A stretch of 64,000 nt of DNA from Schizochytrium sp. TIO01 (Eukaryota; Protista; Bigyra: Labyrinthulomycetes): contig SMSO01000007.1 in assembly GCA_004764695.1 (NCBI GenBank), forward strand, positions 434,001-498,000, written 5' to 3'. The number at the start of each line of letters is the position of its first letter. Position 1 is the stretch's first letter. The notes below the pieces were generated by a model, which was not told where the DNA came from, ran no database searches, and saw nothing but the letters and a program-made list of their open reading frames with translations. Shown here in pieces: positions 10,377 through 24,208 of this stretch. The position numbers and the translations under genes were made by a program.

Positions 10377-13247
10377 TTAATTTGGGGCCTCGTCGCCTGT
10401 AAATTCTTTTCGACCTTTCCTTTGGAAGTTAGTGAGGGGAGTAAAAATATTTCCGCGGGTTGTTGAATTGAGTTGCTTCTTTTTCTTTTCATTCCGTAGT
10501 TGATCCTGCAGTTCCAGTTTCTCCTGAGCTAAAACGGAGATTGTGTCTAAATTATTGTCATCTGTGAGTCTGGCTCGCTCACGCAATATCTCGGCACTTG
10601 ATTGCATGACCATATTTGTGACCGTGTTATACTCTGAGTTGGGATCATATCGAACCTCGCGGTCAAGCATATAAAGCTTGCCATGTTCAACGTAAGCCTT
10701 GTTGTTGTACCACTTTCGACGATAACGTAAAAGGAGGAATAAAGACACCGAAAGGAGCGCAAAGGCACCTCCACCACCTACAGATACATAAAAGTACTTT
10801 TCACTGTAAAAGTTTCTGGAACCCTCCCCAGAATCCGATGGCATCATCGTAGGGCGTGGTGTCACTGGAATCACACGAACTGCACGAGATGCTGATGCAG
10901 ACCATTCATGTTTCTGAGGGGATGCGCTTGCTGTATATAGAGTATCGCTACCTTCCAAGTTAGAAGATAAGACCTCAAACTCCACCTCAAAGTAGCAGCT
11001 CTGTCCAGTACAAATGTAAAGATCAAAAGTTCCCAGGATATTAGTGAACAGAGCTGCTGTATATGTACCATCACCGTTATCAACAATGGTTGCATTCACA
11101 ATCGCGGGTGTGCTAGATTTGTTGTAGTATGCTGAAGTAATATTGTCTGTAACCAGACCCCGACGAAGGTTCGTTTGGGTCATTGAGGAAGCTATAGTTT
11201 CATTTGCCGAGGGAGTAGCTTCAAGACGCTCAATGAAAATTCCATTGATCAGGTCTTCATCACCCCCATAGGTAATTGAATAGTTACACCAATCGCGATA
11301 TTGAACTGTTAGCCCACCCATGGTCTCTCCGTCTGCAGGAATCACGATGGGATCTACTTCAGCTCCATCCAAAAAATCAACCGCATCAGTAGCAGAAGAG
11401 TCAACAGAAACAGTTGAGATGGATAGATTTTTAATTTGCAGCCTCGAGGGGTCATCAGTTACCGCAGAAGTAAAACCCACGTATGCGTTTCGATAACCCA
11501 GGATGTCATGTATTGTAAAATTGTGTTGACGTAAATAGAGAGAATCATTAATGTAAACTTGTAACCAATCAGGTGTTGCAAGGTATTCAATACGAATATT
11601 GTGTGTTTCGTCATCGCGGCGCATAGTCCGCATTATTCCTTCATAGACACGCCTGGAATCAAAGTTTGCATCAATAGGTTCATCATTACTATTTGGATAA
11701 TGGATCGCAACACTCTGCTCACTGCACGTATCAGAAGAATTTCTGTCCGCGCACAGATCAAACACAACAGCAACTGCATTAGTTAAGAAGCGATATCCAA
11801 GTCCAGCACCCACAGAGACAGGCATATTGATAAGACCTTCATCACGCGCATGAAGGACTAGGGCGAAACCTTCGGTGTTGCCTACTTTTGATAGTTGAAC
11901 ATCGAATTCTATAACAAAACCGGCACCCACATTTTGCCGTTTGGAGAGATACGCAAATGTAGGACTAAAAGGAACTGACTTGTTGTGGATGAGATTTAGA
12001 ACAGGCTCCATACTTCCTTCACTTGTCCAGGAAACACCTGGACCAAGGAACCAGTCAGTCTCGACATTCTGAGAGTCCCACGAAAACGAAGAGGTCCCTG
12101 ACTTCACAACATTGCATGTGGATGCAAGCGTCGTTGTCATACGAAAGTTGGAGGCATCTGTTCGCCGCTCCGCATGGAATAGATCGAACGCATAGGTCTT
12201 GTTGATCTCAAGCTGAGCAAGTTCCGCGATGTTGTCGAGATGCACAGAGGCGGTAAGGGAGCTGTGCATTCCTCCAAGATCAACAACAAGCTCCCCATTT
12301 ATAAACACCCAAACGTCATCATCCCCGCGAAACTCAAAATACTCTCCACCGCGATATTCAAAATATGTATGAATTTCCGTTGTAAACCACATTTTCGACA
12401 TGCGATAGTATGGAGTTCCTGTAAAACCATAGTCGCTGTGCGGCCAGGCAGGTGTTTCCTGAACTGTGTATTGGTATTGTGACAAGTCAACGAACTCCTT
12501 AAGGGGGGTAAAGTAAGGCGTTTGATCATTAGTAATATCATCCGCATCAGAGCTTTCCGAGTCAAACACATAGTAGTCCTGGCCTGAGCCTGGGTTGTAA
12601 TTAAGTTGTATTTTGCGACCAACGCGACGGTTGTACTTGGAATCATCGTTGTACCAGGAGTGGAAATATGTCCTGTTTGTGGTAGTATAGAGACCTTTTG
12701 GGTGACGGCCACACCGTGTAGAATTGCAATATTGTACTTTCGGCAGTCCCGATAATGCGATTGCTGTTTGGTTGAGGACAGTAGCGTCAATATTTGCTGT
12801 GCAGCCTTCGCCTCGTACACAGCTTGGGCCATTTTCAGCATGGATAAACCAACCATACATTTCAAAATCTGGATGCCCACTAATCTCACCCGTTCGAAGT
12901 GATTCCCAATAAGGACAAAATGTATCGAGGCTACTACTAGACGAGGCCCAATATCCGTGAAAACCGCTTGTATCAACTTCAGACACGCTTGAATAAGCGA
13001 AAGAGCCATCCTTGATGCCACCGAACGCACCATCAGGAGTGACATTCCATGCGCTATAATATGTTGATGCCTCAACACATGCAGCAGGTAAGAAATCTCG
13101 TATTGTCATGGAATACGTCAGCGAGTCTTCAAGTGCAAAGCTAGGCCCTAACAACGATGAGACCAGAAGTATCACGAAACCAACGAAAATACTTTTATGG
13201 GAGGTCATCGGTAGGCGACTCACATTTTCGTCGCGAGGCTTAATCAT
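10377..13247 (-). CDS. Type I membrane protein: signal peptide, fibro-slime/PA14 domain, L-type (ConA-like) lectin domain, filamin/Ig-like segment, TM helix, cytoplasmic coiled coil (about 956 aa; alternative ATG at 13208)
   Basis: Long intronless ORF. Fibro-slime signatures: TIRDF...GHPDFE and FTTEIHTYFEYRGGEYFEFRGDDDVWVFINGELVVDLGGMH...FHAERRTDASNF. Lectin-like motifs: EGFALVLH...GLGY...AVVFD...AYVGFTS. Also DNGDGTYTA, and a TM helix VSVGGGGAFALLSVSLFLLL followed by RYRRK. Confidence 0.88.
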   Translation of the reverse strand: MIKPRDENVSRLPMTSHKSIFVGFVILLVSSLLGPSFALEDSLTYSMTIRDFLPAACVEASTYYSAWNVTPDGAFGGIKDGSFAYSSVSEVDTSGFHGYWASSSSSLDTFCPYWESLRTGEISGHPDFEMYGWFIHAENGPSCVRGEGCTANIDATVLNQTAIALSGLPKVQYCNSTRCGRHPKGLYTTTNRTYFHSWYNDDSKYNRRVGRKIQLNYNPGSGQDYYVFDSESSDADDITNDQTPYFTPLKEFVDLSQYQYTVQETPAWPHSDYGFTGTPYYRMSKMWFTTEIHTYFEYRGGEYFEFRGDDDVWVFINGELVVDLGGMHSSLTASVHLDNIAELAQLEINKTYAFDLFHAERRTDASNFRMTTTLASTCNVVKSGTSSFSWDSQNVETDWFLGPGVSWTSEGSMEPVLNLIHNKSVPFSPTFAYLSKRQNVGAGFVIEFDVQLSKVGNTEGFALVLHARDEGLINMPVSVGAGLGYRFLTNAVAVVFDLCADRNSSDTCSEQSVAIHYPNSNDEPIDANFDSRRVYEGIMRTMRRDDETHNIRIEYLATPDWLQVYINDSLYLRQHNFTIHDILGYRNAYVGFTSAVTDDPSRLQIKNLSISTVSVDSSATDAVDFLDGAEVDPIVIPADGETMGGLTVQYRDWCNYSITYGGDEDLINGIFIERLEATPSANETIASSMTQTNLRRGLVTDNITSAYYNKSSTPAIVNATIVDNGDGTYTAALFTNILGTFDLYICTGQSCYFEVEFEVLSSNLEGSDTLYTASASPQKHEWSASASRAVRVIPVTPRPTMMPSDSGEGSRNFYSEKYFYVSVGGGGAFALLSVSLFLLLRYRRKWYNNKAYVEHGKLYMLDREVRYDPNSEYNTVTNMVMQSSAEILRERARLTDDNNLDTISVLAQEKLELQDQLRNEKKKKQLNSTTRGNIFTPLTNFQRKGRKEFTGDEAPN

Positions 13248-15119
13248 TATAGCCAGCTTAGAAGAGCCAATGCGATATGAGTATGCGTAGCGTACCAAAT
13301 GAAAGCTTCAGACGGTTGATAAAAATCGTGTGGTAACTCGTCTGTGCTCGGCTTCTTGCTCAAAACCGCCTCTGGGACTGTGTCAGTTCAAGCTAAGACA
13401 GTCCTAAACGATAGCTGATAACCTCGAAACGTCGCCCCTCACAGGTCTTTATACACCTACCTCGCGGTCTAGTTTATGTTTCTTAGCTCGAGCACTTTGA
13501 CCTTCTCGACTTCAAGAGCAGTTCCCCGGCTAGCCTACGTAGCCCTGCCAGAATGTGTAGACCAAGGCTTTATGTGGTCGTTGTTTGGTACGATTATCTG
13601 TTTAATTAGTTGATCGATGCTCCAACCTGGAGGAACTTGTCCCCTCGGTCCCTCAACCATTTGGTTTTGCCTCACTGACTTGGTGCCTCTCATCGCGAGT
13701 CGAACCTCAACTTGCCTCAATGTGGTCCATAGCATCTCTTCCAAATACCCATGTTGCCAATGGACGGTGTGCACCGATCAGTGAATCCATATTAGTCACT
13801 TTTATGCATAGGCCAAAGTACTTGCTAGCTAGGCCGGCTATAGAAGTGGATTTTGGTGCAGTTCTGCGATCGACGTACGCGACTAATCAATTAATGTGTA
13901 GCTCCAACACAGAGACCATTCCTCGAGGGTCCCTAATGATGATCACTATGAATTTATTGTGAATCCGCCCAACCTGCTGTGTGCGTGGCGCCAATAAATA
14001 CCACAAATGACAAAGTTTCACAACGACTCTACTATTCAAAGTACCCGAGTTAGGCCGGGGTATCTTTGCAGAATGCCTCGGAGTTGCAATTTTGAGTGCA
14101 CCCAGTTCACTTATCATAACGTGCGTAGTGAACAATCTCTATGTACGACACCTGATTCTACGATTGTTGCTACTTTTAGCAGTGTTAGTCCAACTTATCT
14201 AATAGCAGGTGTATATGTACCTAGCTAGTACCTAACACAACTTATAGTCGGTTCAATATGCGCTAAGTAGCGGCTCCAAGGGTCAGATAGTTTGGCGTAG
14301 AAAATAAGCGTCATCGGCCATGGTCATGGTTCTTCTCTGAGGTGTTAAGTATAATTAGCTCGCGTTCACCTCATCGACATACCAGCCTTCAAGTCCGAAA
14401 GAGTGTGTAGAGAACCAACCCAGCCGTGACAGTCTTTGTGAATATATATCGCTAAACATACGCTTGAAAGGCCAAACCCGAGGTTGACAATTAACCTTAA
14501 AATTTTGGAGGTAATTTTTGTTTTCTGGTGTTAGATGTAGTGTCTTAAAAGGAAATCGTGTCAGAACAACTCCTTCAAGAGAGAGAGAGAGAGCACTTTC
14601 TAAATTAATATATGCATGGCTTGCTTGGGCTATGGGATTTGAACTACTATTAAGTCGCCGTGTTGGTTTTTCCTTTGCTATGTTTATCTAGCTAGACTTA
14701 GCTGTATTGTAGAAAGATCTCTGCGAACAAGTGTATTGAGAACGGTCTCGAACGAAATGAAACAAAAAATAAAGTTGAAAGTAAATGCTTCTTATTAGAC
14801 ATTTATTTGTTTTCTAGTTGTACAAGTTTAAGCAAAAAAGAGGAGTTTGTATGCGAGACGTAAAAGCTCCGAGAGACTATGATTATACAAGATAACGAAT
14901 GAAATGTACAGCGATAACCGTAAATCATGGTAGTCATTGTTGTCCTGCAAATTTCATATTGAGGGGAGAAATGAGCGCTCTGATCGTAATTGTACTTGAT
15001 CGAGTCTGCGTTTATAGGAGGCAAAGGCTCAACAGCCTAATCTAATTAAAAAGAAAATGTCTGCCAGGAACTGTTGTTGTTATTGCCGCTGTTGCTGATT
15101 GACAAATCTTTTTGCAGAA

Positions 15120-18100
15120 CTAATGATGGTTCAAAGGATTTTTCGTAAAAGAAGTTGAGGAGGATGAAGACGAGGATGAAATTAGGGGTCGCCGTGCTTG
15201 CTGAGGTTGGTGCGCGGCCGATGCAACATTGAAAGAGCGCTGTACCACTTGCACTGGTAACATGAGCTGGTCTGCAAGATGAGATAGCTTCTCTTCAGGA
15301 ATAGAAATGTTAACGTGCCCTTGATCCTCGCATTCTAGTTCTCCAATCTTGCTCAGAACACGAGGATTGTAAGATGCTTTAGCCATAATACCAAAGGCAA
15401 TATCTTGAAGAGTAGCTCGTGAGCTTTCAGCATTAGCAAGAACCAAGGTATCATCATCATTTGAAGATAAATCAGAGTCCAGCTTGCCGCTGTGCTTTCG
15501 AAGCCATGGGTGTTCCAACAGCGTCTCTGCATCCGGGCGATCTGCCGGGTCAAGAATTAAGGTCTGCTTGATGAAATCGCGAAGTTCAGGAGAAGGGGTC
15601 ACGATTCTCTGTTGTTGCTGTACGAGCAGAGGAGAGTGGTGCAACAACTCGGACGGAAGCTCAATACTGTGTCCAGAGTTCCAGCGTTCGAGGAGCTTCC
15701 AGTAAATCGAAGAACCCTGCCCTTGGTCGTTGGCATCTCCAGTGCTATTTCCGCCGGTCAGCGAGGCAATTGAGGCTTGTCGTGCTTTGTTGGTGCTACT
15801 TGGAAGAGATGATGATTGCAGCGGAACAGGTACTGCATCGGTTATCAGAGTCATTGGGAACTCACCAAGGATAAGGGTCATCAAAGTGAGACCAAACGAC
15901 CATACGTCGCTAGGATGGGAATGACCCTCTCCACGAAGCCGTTCAGGAGACATGTACTTCATTGTGCCAGCGAAAGTGTTCGCCATGCTATCCTTCTCGA
16001 GCTGTTTGGAGAGACCAAAATCTGCGAGCTTGACTTGCGATCGAGAATTGATAAGGATATTAGCTGGTTTGATGTCCAAATGCACATAGCTTTGTTCGTG
16101 CAAGAAAGCAAGAGCGCGTAAAACGCTCCGGGCAACTAAAGCCAAAGTTGGCTCGTCCACAATACCAGTGCTATGCATAAGCCCGGGCTTGAGCGCTGTC
16201 GGGCTTGGTGAGGCAACATAAGAAGAAGAACGATGAGATGGGCCCGAGCCATGAGTACCAACTGTGTCATTCGATGACGGGCGTGAGCGAAGGCGATTGA
16301 AAGCACGATTCTTCTTCGAAGTGCCTAATGTTCTACTCTCAGCATTTGCCAAGGCTTGCATGGCGGAATGCTTTAAGCGAAGCACCAGGTCTTCAAGGCT
16401 GCCGCCATCCATAAGTTCCATTACTAAACACACTGTCTGGGAATCGGCATCGAGATATGCATCATAAAGCCACACAATGTAAGGGCAACGTTGGTTTAGA
16501 CCTCGGCCAAGTTTCGAGAAAAGAGCTTTGAACTCGCGAGCTGCTTGGTGGCGCGAGTCGCGACTGGCGAAGCGAATTTCTTTGATTGCACAAAGGTCAA
16601 AATTCCGCAGATTCAAAGCAGCAGACACCGTTCCAGATACGCCCTTGCCAAGTTCAGCATAGCGGAAAAGGTTTTCCTTGACTTTTCCATCACTTTCTTT
16701 CCCTTCACTGGACATGCCGTCCTCCGTGAATCGAATACCCTGCACATCGATTGCCTTTTCTCCAAGCCACGTGAAAGTCTTTGACTCCGTTGCCAGCCCT
16801 TGCAAGGGATCATTGGAGCAATCGTTCTCAGACTTGAAGCTAGTCTTTTTAGTGGTATCTTCGAGCGAAACTTTACCTTGCTGACTTGGTTGCAGAGCAG
16901 AAATGTCTAAACCAAGTCCTGTAGGAGCTTCGCCAGGTGCTAGACTCTCACCGTCCTCATAACTGCCTTCAGATGTAGCCATATAAGGCATTTTGCCGTT
17001 TGCGGCTCCAGCGTGAATAAGTGCCAGACCTCCTACAGACATGGCCAAACCGCCTACAGTGTGCATAGAGCCATCTAAATTTCGATTGGCGCCCTCGGGA
17101 ATCACAGTAAGCTCTACCTGAGGAACATTCTTTCGAACTTCTCCATTCGCTTTGAGGCGGATATTGGCAGTGTCCTCCGCCTGGTTGATGTCAATTACAA
17201 CTGCATAAAGCTGACGTTTCTCGCTGTAATCCCAAACCTTCACAGAATCACCAATATGAAATTTAGCGGCACCAATAACATCCGTCTTCACACTCCGCGA
17301 GTCAATGATGCGATCAAGTGCCTTGATAATATCATGAAATGAAGGTCTATTTTCTGGATCCTCGTCCCAACAGTCCTGGATCAATTTAATTAGCATGGGA
17401 TCCACGCCAGTGTTTTCTTCGCACTTTGGCCTATACATATTATAGCGCACCTCGTAAAAGAGCTTCGGGACTGTCCAGGTACGTGGATGTGGCTGTTTTT
17501 CATACATTATTTGCCACAAGACAAGACTATAGCTATAGACGTCAATCTTGTTTGTAATACCCGTGTTCTCCCGAAGTAACTCGGGTGCCATGTAAGCAGG
17601 GGTACCTTGATGATTAACAGCGTCAATTTTGTCATCAGGACCCATGGTAAACTTAGCAATGCCCAAGTCACAAATCTTTGCGTGACCAGAAACATCCAAA
17701 AGAACATTTTCACATTTCACATCGAAATGAATCATGTGATTATCATGAATGTATGCCATTCCTGCTGCAATCTGCCTTGCTACAACAAGTTTGCGAGCAA
17801 TGTCAAAATTTTTGAACGACAGGTTGAGGGATTTGGGCAAACGAAAGATAAGGTCCTGAAGACTGCAAGCAGCGAGCTCCATTACTACCAAGAAACGGTG
17901 GCCACCAGTGTCATTGCTCATTGCAGTCGCACAACCAAAAAGACGAATGACGTTGGGGTGACGCAAACGACGAAGGTTCTTAACTTCTGCCAGCATTTCA
18001 TCAGACTCTCCTATTCCATTTAGCATTTCATCCTCCACACCATTGAAGCTATATGTCTCATGCTCTGGGACATTGTGCGCAGCTGCACCAGGGGTTAGCA

Positions 18101-21100
18101 AACCGCTTGTGTTCAACACGGAACCATTGCTCGTACCAAGACCGCCTACGCCTGTGTTTGTTGCGTCCATTGACATGGATCGGCTAGAAGAGGAAACTGA
18201 GGCATCTTCAGCAGGGAATGGAGAGCGTGCCACAGGGCCATCATCTGCTGAAGCGCTTAAAACATCAACATTACTGCAGGTTGAGTTTGAACGAACAGTG
18301 CTGCTATTACTTAAGTAACGGGGTGGCAATGGGTGGCGTCCAAAGCGATGCCGCGAGCCGACACTGTTATTGTCACCACTGGCAGTGGACTGTCGACCAA
18401 GACTGTAGCCCTTCATCATATTCTGTGCTCCGGCAGAACGAGTAGAGCGTGGAAAAAATTCTTTCACAGCAACATCAGATCCACAATAAGTTGCCTTAAA
18501 GATACGTCCACTACTACCCATTCCAATTGTAGGTCCAAGTTGTAGTTGTTTGATATCAACAGCTAATCCATTCATATCTGAAGCACGTGTGCCTTCGGAT
18601 GAATCATCATTGTGAGCCCTGAGGATTTCAGCCATGACAACATGCTTAGAACTACGCGATTCAAGACCATGACTGGACTGTGATTCGAACAAGCGAATGC
18701 ATTCATCGGGGCGGTACTCGTGAACACTCCCTGTGTGCTTACTAAATGTTTTCCCACCAAGCATAATCCGGTCCCTGGAGATGTCATCCTTATCGATCAT
18801 TTCTTCATCTTTACGTGAACGCCTACGCTTCCCAAAGACAATATAGAAAATTCCACAAAGGAGCAATAAACCACCGATTGAGGTGGTCGAAATAATTGCA
18901 ACATGGGTATCTTCTTTGGCAGCCGCGACAACTTCAACAGGAGCCACGGTGGGGCTTTCGGTGGGTGTATCACTAGCCAGGAGTTCAGTTATAGATACTG
19001 GGCACACAGTTTCATTGGCGTCGTCATTTGCCTCAGTGTCTCGGTCGGGTAGCTCGGCGGATCCGGAGTAGACGTAAGGAATGGAAGCTTCAATTGTCGT
19101 ATAGCTAGAATCAAGCCATATCGCTGCTACGATAGTACCATTTCCACTTTGCAAAGATCGTCGCTTGGCTGAGTAGATTGGCGAGTGCGTGTAATTCTCA
19201 AAAAGAAACTCAAGATAATCCTCCAGACTTACAACGTAGGAGGCTGGCTCGCTAGTAGGGGTGAGTGTGGGCGCAGTGGGTTGCATTGTAGGCGTTGCTG
19301 TTGGACGCATGGTTGTTGGTGATCCTGTTGGAGTAAGCGTAGTCGGCACCTCGGTTGATGTTGGCGAAAATGTTTGATTTGTTCCGTTGACGAAAAGGGT
19401 TGGTGCCGATGTCGAGTTTGTATCTGTTGTATTTGCATCCAACAGGACACGCCCGAGCATGCGGCGAAGGGAAGAAGTGGGTGATGCAGACGGCAAAAGC
19501 GTAGGAGCATTTGTTGCATTGGTAGAGTTGAGGGACCCGGTTCCAAAAGACGTTGGCGCTAGGGTATAGTTGGTACCATTGATGATATCCGTGCTGTTTG
19601 TTTGATTCGACCAGAGAGTGGGTGCAAGGGTTGGCGCAAAAGTTGGAACTCCTGTCGGCATTGCAGTTGGCGTGGGTGCAACAGTCGGCACTGTGTACCG
19701 TGTGTAAGAATCTGTGACAACAGGCATATCAACCACGCAAAGAGTTTGAAGACCACTCAGAACTGAAGCATCACTATCAGGATCAATACTAAAGCATGTT
19801 GAGTCCATGATAGTTGCTGTTGGTACAAGCTGACTTCCGTCAAAGTCATCGGAAAGAAAAGCCAATCGGGGTTCCTCGATTGCTGTCATTCCATCTGGAA
19901 CTGTAATACCCATTGCTTCGATTGCAATTGTTGAATTGAAGACCATTTCTTGCATCAAGCAACGAAGATCCTGCACCATTGTGCTTGTGACTTCATCGAC
20001 AGTGAGAATTCGGCGGCTGTCGTCATTTGTTGACTGTATCGCCATTAAGGATGAAGCAGTAGAGTTGGAGCCGTTTGAAGAAGAAAACGATGACGAGTTT
20101 GTTCCGTTTGAAGGAGTTGGTGCTAACGTCGTATAGTCATCGTAATCATCGTATGAATCTCCGTCACCTTGTGAGCGGTTACTCTCGATAAAACTTTGAG
20201 TGCTATCATCCCACGCCTGAGTGAATCCCATCCAGAAGCGAACGTGATAGGCAGCAAATAGAGGTAATGTAGGTGCTGGTGTAGGTGCAAACGTTGGGTT
20301 CATAGTTGGTGCTATGGTGGTTGGCTTTTCTGTTGGAGCGGACGTTGGAGTAAAAGTCGGTTGCACCGGCGCTGATGTAGGTTTCATAGTGGGCCTCTGC
20401 GTTGGACTCGAAGTTGGAGCTGCTGCTGGAATATAAGTATTCGTACAAAGTCCTCCCTTCGTGAAATAGCCGTTCTCGTCTATCTCGGTTGGACACCATC
20501 CCAAAATTGTTGTACCAAGTTCATCTTTTACCATAGCCTCCGCTGACTCCAGATTAGCTAGTTTGGTACTGGATGAGATAACATAAGAGATGCAGTTGCT
20601 TGAGTTGGTATAATTCCATCCCCAGTCCATGAACTCTGGAGGTGTGACGCATTGTGTTTTCGAAGAACTAACATCGAGCATCATGTGGTTAACAACCTTC
20701 TTTTTCCATGCGTTGGTTCCCTTGTACCATGCTTTGTATTTCTTATTTTTGGGGTAAAAGGTTTGATTCCAGTATGTTGTGACGTTTGATAGGGCTTCTT
20801 CTGAGAGAGAAGCCAGGGGTGGGACATATGAATCAGCTGTGCAGTTGCAATAGAGCCAGGCGTTCCGACTTGAGAGTGAGTCTGGGTCGGCTGATGATTT
20901 GTCATAAATCTGTGAGATAGGACACCACATAAGAGAGGTATTGAGGCTATCTGTTGTGTAAGGTGTGTACAGACCTGTGGTCGCGGCGCAGCGGCCCTCG
21001 CTGTAAGTTCGCGAGGCAACGCATGTAATATTATCGCTTGTTACGGTTCCTGGAGTACAAGTGGATGTAGGATACTGCTTGAACTGCCACGAACTTGAAT

Positions 21101-21554
21101 AGCACGTGATGGTTTCTTTTTGTGCCTCTGTAATAGAACTATAGGAAGTGCCTTTGTAAATTGGGTTACAGGTAATTTTGAGGTCGTTTTGCATGAAGGA
21201 CCATGACCCGAGCGCCGGCTTTACCATGCAACTGGCCACAGCCAAGATGCAAAGCACGATATTCACCCAGGACTCCAATCTTGTTGGATTTCTCTGTCGT
21301 TTTTTTCGAATTCCTCCTGCCTTATGGTTTGCTGTTGACGAACGCGATGAAGGTGACGATGACGATGATGATAACCTATTCAACAAATTAACTAAAGACC
21401 TTGGTTGATTTTCTTCCCTAACCTCTGCAGTGCCATAACAAGACACAGAAATGGGAGGATCGTGAGAAGAAGATAATAAATGAGCTTCTGTAGGTTCCAT
21501 CGGCAACCTGCGTTTCTTGCCAGCTTTGATATTCCACATTTCTGCCATCCCCAT
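15120..21554 (-). CDS. Single-pass receptor-like protein with Cys-rich and Pro/Thr (mucin-like) ectodomain and two cytoplasmic kinase domains (TKL-like, then MAP2K/STE7-like), 2144 aa
   Basis: 6.4-kb ORF. Signal/anchor VNIVLCILAVASC; TM VAIISTTSIGGLLLLCGIFYIVF followed by GKRRR. Kinase 1: GMGSSG/VAVK/HPNVIRLFG/HFDVKCENVLL/DLG/GTPAYMAPE/CWDEDPENRPSF. Kinase 2: GKGVSG/AIK/MELMDGGSL/HLDIKPANILINSRSQVKLADFG/ANTFAGTMKYMSPERL/SDVWSFG. Confidence 0.92.
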   Translation of the reverse strand: MGMAEMWNIKAGKKRRLPMEPTEAHLLSSSHDPPISVSCYGTAEVREENQPRSLVNLLNRLSSSSSSPSSRSSTANHKAGGIRKKRQRNPTRLESWVNIVLCILAVASCMVKPALGSWSFMQNDLKITCNPIYKGTSYSSITEAQKETITCYSSSWQFKQYPTSTCTPGTVTSDNITCVASRTYSEGRCAATTGLYTPYTTDSLNTSLMWCPISQIYDKSSADPDSLSSRNAWLYCNCTADSYVPPLASLSEEALSNVTTYWNQTFYPKNKKYKAWYKGTNAWKKKVVNHMMLDVSSSKTQCVTPPEFMDWGWNYTNSSNCISYVISSSTKLANLESAEAMVKDELGTTILGWCPTEIDENGYFTKGGLCTNTYIPAAAPTSSPTQRPTMKPTSAPVQPTFTPTSAPTEKPTTIAPTMNPTFAPTPAPTLPLFAAYHVRFWMGFTQAWDDSTQSFIESNRSQGDGDSYDDYDDYTTLAPTPSNGTNSSSFSSSNGSNSTASSLMAIQSTNDDSRRILTVDEVTSTMVQDLRCLMQEMVFNSTIAIEAMGITVPDGMTAIEEPRLAFLSDDFDGSQLVPTATIMDSTCFSIDPDSDASVLSGLQTLCVVDMPVVTDSYTRYTVPTVAPTPTAMPTGVPTFAPTLAPTLWSNQTNSTDIINGTNYTLAPTSFGTGSLNSTNATNAPTLLPSASPTSSLRRMLGRVLLDANTTDTNSTSAPTLFVNGTNQTFSPTSTEVPTTLTPTGSPTTMRPTATPTMQPTAPTLTPTSEPASYVVSLEDYLEFLFENYTHSPIYSAKRRSLQSGNGTIVAAIWLDSSYTTIEASIPYVYSGSAELPDRDTEANDDANETVCPVSITELLASDTPTESPTVAPVEVVAAAKEDTHVAIISTTSIGGLLLLCGIFYIVFGKRRRSRKDEEMIDKDDISRDRIMLGGKTFSKHTGSVHEYRPDECIRLFESQSSHGLESRSSKHVVMAEILRAHNDDSSEGTRASDMNGLAVDIKQLQLGPTIGMGSSGRIFKATYCGSDVAVKEFFPRSTRSAGAQNMMKGYSLGRQSTASGDNNSVGSRHRFGRHPLPPRYLSNSSTVRSNSTCSNVDVLSASADDGPVARSPFPAEDASVSSSSRSMSMDATNTGVGGLGTSNGSVLNTSGLLTPGAAAHNVPEHETYSFNGVEDEMLNGIGESDEMLAEVKNLRRLRHPNVIRLFGCATAMSNDTGGHRFLVVMELAACSLQDLIFRLPKSLNLSFKNFDIARKLVVARQIAAGMAYIHDNHMIHFDVKCENVLLDVSGHAKICDLGIAKFTMGPDDKIDAVNHQGTPAYMAPELLRENTGITNKIDVYSYSLVLWQIMYEKQPHPRTWTVPKLFYEVRYNMYRPKCEENTGVDPMLIKLIQDCWDEDPENRPSFHDIIKALDRIIDSRSVKTDVIGAAKFHIGDSVKVWDYSEKRQLYAVVIDINQAEDTANIRLKANGEVRKNVPQVELTVIPEGANRNLDGSMHTVGGLAMSVGGLALIHAGAANGKMPYMATSEGSYEDGESLAPGEAPTGLGLDISALQPSQQGKVSLEDTTKKTSFKSENDCSNDPLQGLATESKTFTWLGEKAIDVQGIRFTEDGMSSEGKESDGKVKENLFRYAELGKGVSGTVSAALNLRNFDLCAIKEIRFASRDSRHQAAREFKALFSKLGRGLNQRCPYIVWLYDAYLDADSQTVCLVMELMDGGSLEDLVLRLKHSAMQALANAESRTLGTSKKNRAFNRLRSRPSSNDTVGTHGSGPSHRSSSYVASPSPTALKPGLMHSTGIVDEPTLALVARSVLRALAFLHEQSYVHLDIKPANILINSRSQVKLADFGLSKQLEKDSMANTFAGTMKYMSPERLRGEGHSHPSDVWSFGLTLMTLILGEFPMTLITDAVPVPLQSSSLPSSTNKARQASIASLTGGNSTGDANDQGQGSSIYWKLLERWNSGHSIELPSELLHHSPLLVQQQQRIVTPSPELRDFIKQTLILDPADRPDAETLLEHPWLRKHSGKLDSDLSSNDDDTLVLANAESSRATLQDIAFGIMAKASYNPRVLSKIGELECEDQGHVNISIPEEKLSHLADQLMLPVQVVQRSFNVASAAHQPQQARRPLISSSSSSSSTSFTKNPLNHH

Positions 21555-24208
21555 TTTTGCAAACTAGCTTAGGCTAGCAGAGATATGACCAGCAAGCTAG
21601 TTAGCTATTGTGTCTCAACAAAATTCACCACTTGGAAATAGTCAAGCCGCTTGGTCTCCCTTTCGGTCTGTTTTCTCAAACTCCAAACTTTCAGCTCTGA
21701 CTGCACGTCACTGCCGCTGTGATGCTCCCTTCAGCGGCTGCTTCTTTTACTATTTATTTTTCGTTGTTGCTGTTGTTAACCTGCTAACAAGCCGAGGTTC
21801 GAGCTCCTTTGCCGTGCTCGCGACAGCAAGCGGGCGAGGAGAGGGAGAGGGAGGTTCGACGGTGGCTTGCCTCGCCGCGATGCCTGCGCGGGGGCTTGAG
21901 GTCGACCGAAGCTGGCGCCGCAGGAAACGACTTAAAGGCCCAAATGAAGCGAGGGACCAGCGAGCGCGCTGATCGACGGATCGACTGGATGAGTTACCAC
22001 CGCTCTGCAGAAGTTAGAGGAAACGGAGCACGCTCGCAGTGCCGCGAGCGGCCGGCAGGGATGGAGAGTCCCGCTCTCCGTCCTCCGCGGCCTCTTCCCA
22101 GGACCTGCGGGTCTGCCGGTCCTCGCCGCGTCGGAGAGGAAGGGCAGGCGCGACGAGGCCAAAACAGAACAGAAATCGAATAAGAAGAATAACAATAATC
22201 GACACTCAAACAAACAAACAAACAAACAAACAAACCAAAACTTTAACAACACACAACAATGAAAAGAAGAAGAAACCTCAAAGAAACTTAAAGAGTGAAC
22301 CAAACACACAAAAGCGAAAGAGAGAGAAAACAAAACAAACAAAAACCAAAATCAATCAAACTTGAAGGAAAAAAGAAAGACACCTTAAAAGAACGCCTCC
22401 ACAAGAACGCCTCTGACTGAAAAGAACGGCAGCGATAACTAACTAAGGCAGAGTCTGCGAGGGCCGGGCTCCTGCGCCGCTCCGCCGCGTGGGCAGGCAG
22501 CGGATGGCAGGCGCCTGAGACTGGCTGCCGCTGGCGCGGGGGGTGGCCTACCTCCCTCGCGGCGTACCTAGGTGCCGGCGCGAGGCTCCTGCGCTCGCGT
22601 CCGTGCGTGCGGCGGCCGGCCGCGCCCGAGGTGATGATGGTTGGCGATTGCCGCACCTATTTCTCCATTTCTTCTTCTTCTTTTAAATTCATTTTTAAAA
22701 TATTTTTCTTAAATTTTAAAAAAAAGTTATTATCATTGTTATTTAATTTAAAAGAAATTGATGTAATAGGAATTCGGAAAGTTCAAGTTCTCGAAATGCA
22801 ACTCTTTGGAATCGAGCTATTTAAAATTCTGGTATAGTTAGAGATTTTATTATTTATTTTTAAAGGGAAAAAGAAAAAGAAAAAGAAAAAGAAAAAGAAA
22901 AAAAAGAGAAGACTTGAAAAAATGGACGGTAATTTCTAAATGGTGCAAATGTGCACTTCGAAGAAAGGTCTCTGGTAGGACTTTGTTAGGTTCTTACTAC
23001 TAACCTGCCCCAGGTCTTGATTCTTTTATGCCTGGGAGGTACTGCTACTCTATGGTAAGTGACTTCTACAGACTCTCAGTCAACTTTTTCTTTTTGTTCT
23101 TCTAAAGACAAAAACCAGAGAAACTAACTTTAAAACGTTTTTATTATCATATTTTATATTTATATAGTAAATTGGACAGTCAGTCTGGCGCATTGGCTAT
23201 TGATCTGTTGACTTGCCTTTCAGGACAAGGTCATCGAGATCGAGTCAATTGAGCACGCCATCTCAAACTAAAGCACAACCTCTGCTCAAACTTACATTCG
23301 CACCTGATTTACGCAGAGCTCTCGCGATTCCCCTCGTCTCGATCTTCAAGTTCTCAAGCGCTCATGCAAAAGCAGGAGACCTACAAACTGAATAGCGCCT
23401 ATATTAGAAATACATGAAAGAGCGAATATTATAACAGGCATAGGACTAGCTACCCAGTTGCTAGGCGCTAGGTAGCAGTACTTTTGGTCTCTTTGGGAGC
23501 TGAGTGAAATCAACATGAATATTTTATTTTAATTCAAAATAATGTTTATTTAATTATTTAATTATTTTTTAAATGCCAAAATTAGTTATTTAACAGAAAA
23601 AGTGCAAAAAGGAAAAAACAAGTTTTCCGAGTTCCGAACAGCCAATGCTCAACAAGGCCAATTTGGAGGCGCTTCAGCGTTGCGTATCTTGGGCACCCGC
23701 CATCTTCTGCAGAGCTCATCGTCCATGTCAACACCCTTCCGCCTCTGCATTTCCCCGCACCCTGTCACGAAGGCCGAGGCTTTCCTCGAGCGCTCAGGGC
23801 TCCTGCTTTTCCAAAGGTGGGTCCTCCAACACCTTTCAAGCACCTCCTCTCTGCTGCTAATAATAGGCACTATTGTGGAGGTCACAGAATATGTATGTAT
23901 TCATTCATTGATTTAATTATTTATTTATGTATGTATGTATATACAGTATCAGTATGTATGTATGTGTGCTACCAAACAAGTAAATAACAACATCACCAAA
24001 TTTCTCAATCGCGCAGCACTTTTCAGCACTTGTGCAGCGATTACTCGCGTCGAGGCAGCTGCTGCTGCCGCTGACAATGGTGGCGATGGCTATGACTGTG
24101 GCGGCGACGATTCTCGCTCCTTCATAGCGGCCCCCGGATTGCCAGGTTCTGCGACGAGTTAATGAATGAATGAATCCCTCTCCGATCTCTCCGCCATTTC
24201 GCACACCG

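Follow-up and report, generated by a model that had tools for sequence, protein, structure and literature searches.

A 64,000-nucleotide stretch of the Schizochytrium sp. TIO01 genome (contig SMSO01000007.1, positions 434,001 to 498,000; hereafter, the window) carries the gene for a predicted receptor of 2144 amino acids, designated P0001, in which two kinases follow one another in a single chain. The upstream kinase (K1) belongs to the TKL group and the downstream one (K2) resembles the STE7 family, i.e., the kinases of mitogen-activated protein kinase (MAPK) kinase (MAP2K) type. Among dual-domain receptor kinases, this receptor architecture is real and conserved and has apparently not been described. 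The mechanism that we favour, tentatively and at a little less than an even chance, is that K1 switches on the tethered K2 through one conserved threonine of the K2 activation loop, Thr1860. Two-site activation of the textbook Raf-MEK kind is probably not how the protein works.

The gene is a single-exon open reading frame (ORF) located on the minus strand (15120..21554), with the ATG at 21554 and the stop codon at 15120, and contains neither internal stops nor introns. An earlier interpretation based on the letters of the window only (the sequence-only reading) had described one uninterrupted ORF within 15500..18905. The frame is indeed uninterrupted. The kinases and the transmembrane (TM) helix had been placed correctly, with coordinates agreeing to about 15 nt and every quoted motif found, but the interval covered only part of the gene and left out the N-terminal 880 amino acids and the C-terminal tail. 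The order of parts in the full protein is a hydrophobic segment, a Cys-rich region, a stalk, a TM helix, K1, a Tudor-like barrel, K2 and a helical tail. All the components of a single-pass receptor kinase, namely a signal segment, an ectodomain, a TM helix and a cytoplasmic kinase, are predicted to be present. The barrel and the non-RD state of both kinases (HFD with DLG in K1, HLD in K2) had been missed in the sequence-only reading.

In each of four sequencing runs from four different studies, the whole ORF lies under a single contig of 7.4–7.8 kb at a depth of 51–114, with no gaps and no joints. None of the listed runs is recorded as RNA; the assignment to RNA is a guess for three of the four, and the fourth is unlabelled. 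The contigs end at 14807–14845 and the depth in the intergenic region 14000–14800 is only 0–3, a pattern that fits a transcript, and the runs are probably RNA. Ten base differences were found within the ORF, four missense and six silent, none of them creating a stop. Both kinases are also present on complete MMETSP transcripts of two relatives (P0029 and P0229). The explanation of the fusion by two adjacent genes or by an assembly artefact found no support. It is opposed by the stop-free frame, the gap-free contig in 4/4 runs, the transcripts of P0029 and P0229 and the recurrence of the same order in 22 representatives of the family described below. It is largely refuted, and the probability left to it is negligible. 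The contigs also reach at least 600 nt 5′ of the first ATG (window 21555–22150, minus strand), implying a long 5′ leader, and about 90 residues separate the first ATG from the start of the first hydrophobic segment.

A homologue search of 1.84 billion entries was conducted, and 150 cluster representatives were listed. The TKL-then-STE7 order occurs in 23 of the listed representatives; 22 of them constitute the family, and one is an unrelated soluble dinoflagellate protein. A TM segment precedes K1 in 18 of the 23. The receptor-TKL-STE7 arrangement is therefore that of a conserved family (22/150). Its nearest named relative is GBG34827 of the thraustochytrid Hondaea fermentalgiana, 57% identical across the cytoplasmic region, and Hondaea possesses three paralogs: GBG34827 (HLD), GBG24315 (HRD) and GBG25599 (dead K2). 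The K1 and K2 trees have common sub-branches. The sequence-only reading had not recognised the architecture as a described one. Likewise, the literature searched yielded neither a receptor-TKL-STE7 fusion nor a thraustochytrid kinome, most subscription journals and supplementary tables lying outside the search, so that a listing in a kinome supplement is possible. A scan of metagenome loci covering 1/64 parts was uninformative, its matches (best E 4e-23) being weak and generic to kinases.

K1 occupies amino acids 1000–1415 (17310..18557, minus strand). It retains an intact catalytic Lys, alphaC Glu and catalytic Asp (K1031/E1190/D1278), as does K2 (K1658/E1674/D1827), in agreement with the retention of the catalytic Lys and Asp in both domains noted before. 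In Pfam, the kinases of P0001 are covered by Pkinase (E 2.9e-92) and PK_Tyr_Ser-Thr (E 1.8e-70). Between the beta3 Lys and the alphaC Glu, K1 has a Ser/Thr-rich insert of about 150 amino acids (nt about 18006–18449), and there is no Ser/Thr at its usual loop phosphosite. Pfam, the Protein Data Bank (PDB) search and the tree all assign K1 to the TKL group. The best PDB matches are CTR1 (6e-30, 108 bits) and RIPK1 (3e-26, 96 bits). In the K1 tree, in which no RAF or CTR1 sequence was included, 21/21 fused K1 rows fall into one clade (99/98) together with stand-alone TM-TKLs and apart from the sampled HRD TKLs. The fused K1 rows are non-RD in 20 cases out of 21 and carry DLG in 19, instead of the RD and DFG expected of a Raf-like kinase. 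Hence, of the former designation "TKL/Raf-like", the TKL part stands; by its sequence affinities, K1 is a lineage-specific non-RD receptor TKL, and Raf identity is not supported as stated.

The core of K2 covers amino acids 1633–2017 (15504..16658, minus strand), with the non-RD HLD motif at 16082–16074 and with DFG and YMSPER present. The best PDB matches are MEK2/dSOR1/MEK1 (E 5e-36, 128 bits) versus 3e-26 (95 bits) for STE20 kinases; for K2 of the relative P0032, the margin is narrow (MAP2K 111 against PAK3 110, under 2 bits). Phylogenetic trees were built with IQ-TREE from 57 rows picked out of 114, and from 38 rows remaining after the removal of 19 long-branch or redundant ones. The STE7 rows were labelled by source names and profile scores, and no STE11 sequence was included. 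Both runs place K2 inside the STE7 clade (branch 99/98), which, together with the PDB matches and the presence of all quoted motifs, bears out the STE7-like assignment made from the sequence. In approximately unbiased (AU) tests, grouping K2 with four STE20-like rows lowered the log-likelihood by 17.1 (p-AU 0.117) and 14.6 (p-AU 0.203) and was not rejected, nor was a position of K2 as sister to all other STE7 kinases (p-AU 0.364). For the fused K2 domains taken together, a common origin is neither demonstrated nor rejected (p-AU 0.362); the P0098 group stands apart in the free tree.

The segments flanking K2 also resemble those of stand-alone MAP2Ks. The C-terminal helical tail (15219..15449, minus strand), common to stand-alone stramenopile-type MAP2Ks, scores 13.6 bits against a profile made from stand-alone MAP2K tails only. 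Eight of the 27 family rows reach 10 bits with this profile, and none of 119 non-STE7 kinase proteins does, the highest value being no more than 4.4. The N-terminal extension (16689..16787, minus strand) is conserved in the alignment and its resemblance is weak: 8.7 bits to the stand-alone MAP2K flank profile versus a maximum of 3.7 in the 119 non-STE7 kinase proteins, with 0/27 family rows at 10 bits. On this sequence evidence, the MAP2K origin of K2 is well supported, though not sealed, because the AU tests do not reject the STE20-like grouping and the trees lack STE11.

K2 departs from a standard MAP2K in several respects. The HRD arginine, which normally reads the loop phosphate, is lost in all 14 members of the K2 clade (HLD) and kept in 63 of 64 stand-alone MAP2K rows, the sole exception being a fragment that groups with the fused family. 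The catalytic Lys, Glu, Asp, the DFG and the second-site loop Thr are each kept in 14/14 members of the HLD clade, and all 14 printed loops have a Lys or Arg three residues past DFG, a position where a basic residue helps to bind the loop phosphate. In the activation-loop motif Ser1856-x3-Thr1860 (15975..15989, minus strand), only Thr1860 is conserved across the clade. A Ser/Thr at the first loop site is kept in 3/14 HLD members, in 1/5 HRD fused members and in 46/64 stand-alone rows. The window protein itself carries an S/T-x3-5-S/T loop, and the STE7 hallmark DSMANTFAGT quoted earlier is present in it; however, S-x3-T is not a family feature, being found within the HLD clade only in the window and Hondaea proteins (2/14). 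Grouping of these two K2 domains with the MEK1-like DSMANT/SVANT kinases is rejected (p-AU 7e-6), which means that the MEK1-like SMANT is convergent.

The basic-hydrophobic MAPK-docking (D) motif was sought with a simple regular expression for its consensus, which gave no match in the linker of the window protein. Matches occur in 4 of 13 fused HLD linkers (3.4 expected) versus 38 of 57 stand-alone MAP2Ks (18.1 expected). With the HRD arginine lost and the docking motif not found, K2 is not a standard MAP2K. The linker between K1 and K2 is 218 amino acids long in the window protein and 79–366 over 24 members, a length that makes contact between the kinases possible. A candidate regulatory phosphosite is the RxSS motif (16266..16289, minus strand) in the otherwise variable alphaD-alphaE insert of K2, present in 6/6 closest orthologs examined; the motif was defined after the alignment had been seen, so its shuffle rates are optimistic.

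Other members of the family show what has become of K2 elsewhere. In one paralog group, K2 has lost its catalytic Asp beside an intact K1 in 6/6 members, P0095 (Hondaea GBG25599), P0092, P0093, P0096, P0097 and P0099, only one of which has the second-site Thr. These paralogs resemble a JAK-like kinase-pseudokinase receptor in reverse order. The multi-pass receptors P0133 (Hondaea GBG30141) and P0155 have an HLD MAP2K-like domain, no TKL and at least six predicted TM helices; their large ectodomain gives weak ephrin-receptor-like and leucine-rich repeat matches. Neither of them has the second-site Thr or the basic residue at the corresponding position, which counts as one evolutionary event. 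The non-RD branch (98/92) comprises, in addition to the intact fused K2 domains, the three dead-K2 paralogs tested and both TKL-free multi-pass receptors.

From the demonstrated fusion, single frame, intact catalytic residues, family and loop conservation, we infer the following course of signalling. The ectodomain would sense a ligand or contact with a surface, and the receptor would cluster. K1, being non-RD and devoid of the usual loop phosphosite, would be activated as the receptor clusters or when its Ser/Thr-rich insert is released. It would then phosphorylate Thr1860 of K2, either within the same chain or on the partner chain of a receptor dimer, in what would amount to a one-site MAP3K-to-MAP2K step. 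K2 would be the output, and its target need not be a classical MAPK: the lack of a canonical docking motif suggests that the target may be recruited otherwise, and the Tudor-like barrel is a candidate for this role. We favour this reading because the Thr is invariant and a basic residue follows DFG, because both are missing from the multi-pass version free of K1 (one event) and because precedents exist. In yeast, Ste11 is reported to phosphorylate Pbs2 at its second site alone (PMC7049814), and the kinase EFR is described as non-RD and yet still controlled by loop phosphorylation (PMC8463890). The TKL-then-STE7 order in 22 of the 150 listed representatives and in one unrelated dinoflagellate protein also speaks for it, as does the occurrence of another kinase ahead of a STE7 domain in Cercozoa and in one dinoflagellate, on separate branches.

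Several observations weigh against phosphorylation of K2 by K1. The principal one is the loss of the RD arginine in 14/14 K2-clade members, in contrast to its retention in 63/64 stand-alone rows, because non-RD kinases often need no loop phosphate (PMC3431628, PMC3085482). The first loop site is rarely kept in fused K2 domains, both HLD (3/14) and HRD (1/5), compared with 46/64 stand-alone rows, and the invariant second-site Thr could be structural. Docking motifs are at chance level in the fused HLD linkers and absent from that of the window protein. Kinship of K1 to RAF/CTR1 is not demonstrated beyond common membership in the TKL group, as judged from sequence comparison. In one paralog group, K2 is retained though dead in all six members, and a Ser-Thr pair located 1–2 residues upstream in both multi-pass fusions could be a shifted site.

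These points lead to other ways of reading the same protein. K2 might be an output kinase independent of loop phosphorylation and gated by clustering, by release from autoinhibition or by phosphorylation of an insert (e.g., at RxSS), with K1 acting in parallel or on the inserts. The uniform HLD motif, the mapping of the non-RD change to one branch (98/92), the appearance of the same HLD domain on a multi-pass receptor without a TKL (Hondaea GBG30141, P0155) and RxSS in 6/6 closest orthologs agree with such gating, and the non-RD MAP3K NIK is reported to be active without phosphorylation (PMC3431628). On the other hand, the second-site Thr and the basic residue do not vary in the presence of K1 and are missing without it, and the example of EFR makes loop control compatible with a non-RD state (PMC8463890); we regard gating without loop phosphorylation as somewhat unlikely. 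The chief role of K2 might otherwise be allosteric or that of a scaffold for K1, like that of MEK on KSR or of the JAK pseudokinase, K1 being the main output. The six paralogs that keep a K2 without catalytic Asp beside an intact K1, three tested ones of which nest in the non-RD clade, would suit this role, as would the chance-level docking motifs and the reported promotion of RAF activation by MEK binding to KSR1 (PMC11257983). Conversely, in the clade of the window protein, 14/14 members retain the catalytic Lys, Glu, Asp and DFG in K2, which points to selection for catalysis, and K1-only relatives exist, some of them maybe fragments. We regard a mainly supporting role of K2 as unlikely.

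The sequence-only reading in its full form, a hard-wired Raf-MEK cascade, amounts to phosphorylation of Ser1856 as well as Thr1860 by a MAP3K of Raf type, after which K2, docking in the ordinary way, would phosphorylate a TxY MAPK. Its structural part, a receptor, a TKL and a STE7-like kinase in one chain, is correct, and the S-x3-T of the window and Hondaea proteins and the MEK1/2 matches of K2 fit the rest. The restriction of S-x3-T to 2/14 HLD members, where it is convergent (p-AU 7e-6), the lost HRD arginine, the docking motif that was not found and the unsupported RAF kinship make the two-site mechanism very improbable; neither the Raf-like nature of K1, nor S-x3-T as a family trait, nor the standard MAP2K features were retained.

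The extracellular part starts with an N-terminal hydrophobic segment (amino acids 93–118, 21201..21278, minus strand), predicted from hydropathy and a preceding basic cluster to be a signal peptide or signal anchor; P0003, P0004 and P0029 have a comparable segment. The Cys-rich ectodomain (amino acids 119–372, 20439..21200, minus strand), whose Cys positions align in the orthologs, is a candidate ligand-binding region. It has no Pfam match and no PDB match better than E 0.03, and its family was not recognised in these searches; the best Atlas match (0.81) is not convincing and can be treated only as a lead. Absence of matches does not show a new fold. A Pro/Thr/Ser-rich mucin-like stalk with interspersed conserved blocks follows (amino acids 373–884, 18903..20438, minus strand). 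The ectodomain as a whole contains 36% S+T+P and 26 N-glycosylation sequons. The TM helix, previously placed at about 18833–18903, was located at amino acids 885–908 (18831..18902, minus strand), and the basic stop-transfer cluster KRRRSRK comes after it.

Between the kinases lies a Tudor-like five-stranded SH3-type barrel (amino acids 1430–1486, 17097..17267, minus strand), predicted by an AlphaFold2 model from a 27-row alignment with a predicted local distance difference test score of about 87–95. VIA-align superimposes it on the TDRD3 Tudor domain with Z 9.4 and a root-mean-square deviation of 2.0 Å over 60 residues, and the best Foldseek match is the SMN Tudor domain (E 2.6e-3). The likeness of the modelled barrel to the Tudor/SH3-type fold does not give its function.

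Some further proteins were noted in the course of the search. In the dual kinases P0138 (Paulinella micropora), P0140 (Gymnochlora sp.), P0174, P0186, P0207 and P0217, an RD STE7 domain comes after a STE20-like one, and they lie on branches apart from the thraustochytrid family; P0138 and P0140 belong to the Cercozoa and lack a predicted TM helix. P0189 (dinoflagellate TGD transcript) is a soluble TKL and STE7 fusion with the TKL outside the K1 clade. P0101 (KAH9260707.1) is labelled Batrachochytrium salamandrivorans, and contamination is suspected. In the window, the next gene downstream on the same strand (10377–13247, minus) encodes a surface protein of 956 amino acids, in which PA14 and L-type lectin-like domains are combined with a TM segment at the C-terminus, and an 848-amino-acid Roc-COR-TIR protein is encoded at 3330–5876 (minus).

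MAP2Ks are normally soluble kinases of the middle tier, controlled through two loop sites and equipped with a docking motif for MAPKs. In the present protein, a MAP2K is tied to a receptor behind a TKL; the RD arginine is lost, the first loop site is usually lost and the docking motif apparently so. It is possible, though doubtful, that Labyrinthulomycetes built a receptor family with sensor, upstream kinase and MAP2K tiers in one chain, in which the MAP2K was rewired into a modular non-RD output with a single-phosphosite switch operated by the tethered TKL, became a pseudokinase regulator in one paralog and was moved onto a multi-pass receptor in another. If so, the receptor itself would hold two steps of a standard signalling relay, and the family would offer a natural set of variants for probing the purpose of separate tiers in MAPK cascades. 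The Hondaea genome holds RD, non-RD, dead and TKL-free versions and so allows a direct comparison of kinase-on-kinase regulation. Thraustochytrids can be grown in culture and have industrial uses, which puts knockouts and assays within reach.

Among known systems, K2 is closest to MEK1/2, plant MKK3 and Phytophthora MAP2Ks by the PDB search, the tree and the flanking segments; unlike them, it is membrane-tethered behind a TKL and a Tudor-like barrel, is non-RD and has unconserved first loop site and docking motif. The RAF/CTR1-to-MEK/MKK relay and the KSR-MEK complex also pair a TKL kinase with a MAP2K-type kinase, but as separate soluble proteins, whereas K1 is a receptor TKL of non-RD type that falls into a lineage-specific clade. 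In RSK/MSK and JAK, one kinase domain regulates another within one chain. In P0001, too, a single chain contains two domains with intact catalytic residues, and the kinase-pseudokinase version is found in its family as well; RSK/MSK and JAK differ in belonging to other kinase groups and in lacking a TM helix or ectodomain. The yeast Sho1 branch includes a mucin-like sensor and an SH3 adaptor. Its MAP2K, Pbs2, is activated by Ste11 at one site (PMC7049814). With its sensor, small barrel adaptor, upstream kinase and MAP2K, the branch is a functional analogy only: its components are separate proteins, Ste11 is a STE11 rather than a TKL kinase, and no homology is claimed.

Fusions of STE-group and TKL-group kinase domains are known from Dictyostelium ZakA and DPYK4. 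In the passages of the respective kinome paper, both are assigned to Dictyostelium-specific families, a receptor architecture is not described for them and a single Dictyostelium STE7 kinase, Mek1, is counted (PMC1420674). The passages seen of the Stentor kinome mention no such fusion (10.1101/168187). Trypanosoma brucei MEKK1 is an integral-membrane kinase of MAPK-cascade type, differing in its single MAP3K-like domain and the lack of a MAP2K domain (PMC8519429). Among stramenopiles, Phytophthora infestans is credited with three dual kinases, in which both domains are of one family, and with TM helices on TKLs only (PMC3019232), and the G-protein-coupled receptor (GPCR)-bigrams of oomycetes fuse receptors to enzymes, with no STE7 among the types listed in the passages concerned (PMC6033456). 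The oomycete receptor TKLs, dual kinases and GPCR-bigrams share with P0001 the general layout of stramenopile membrane receptors fused to catalytic domains, some of them with two kinases (PMC3019232, PMC6033456).

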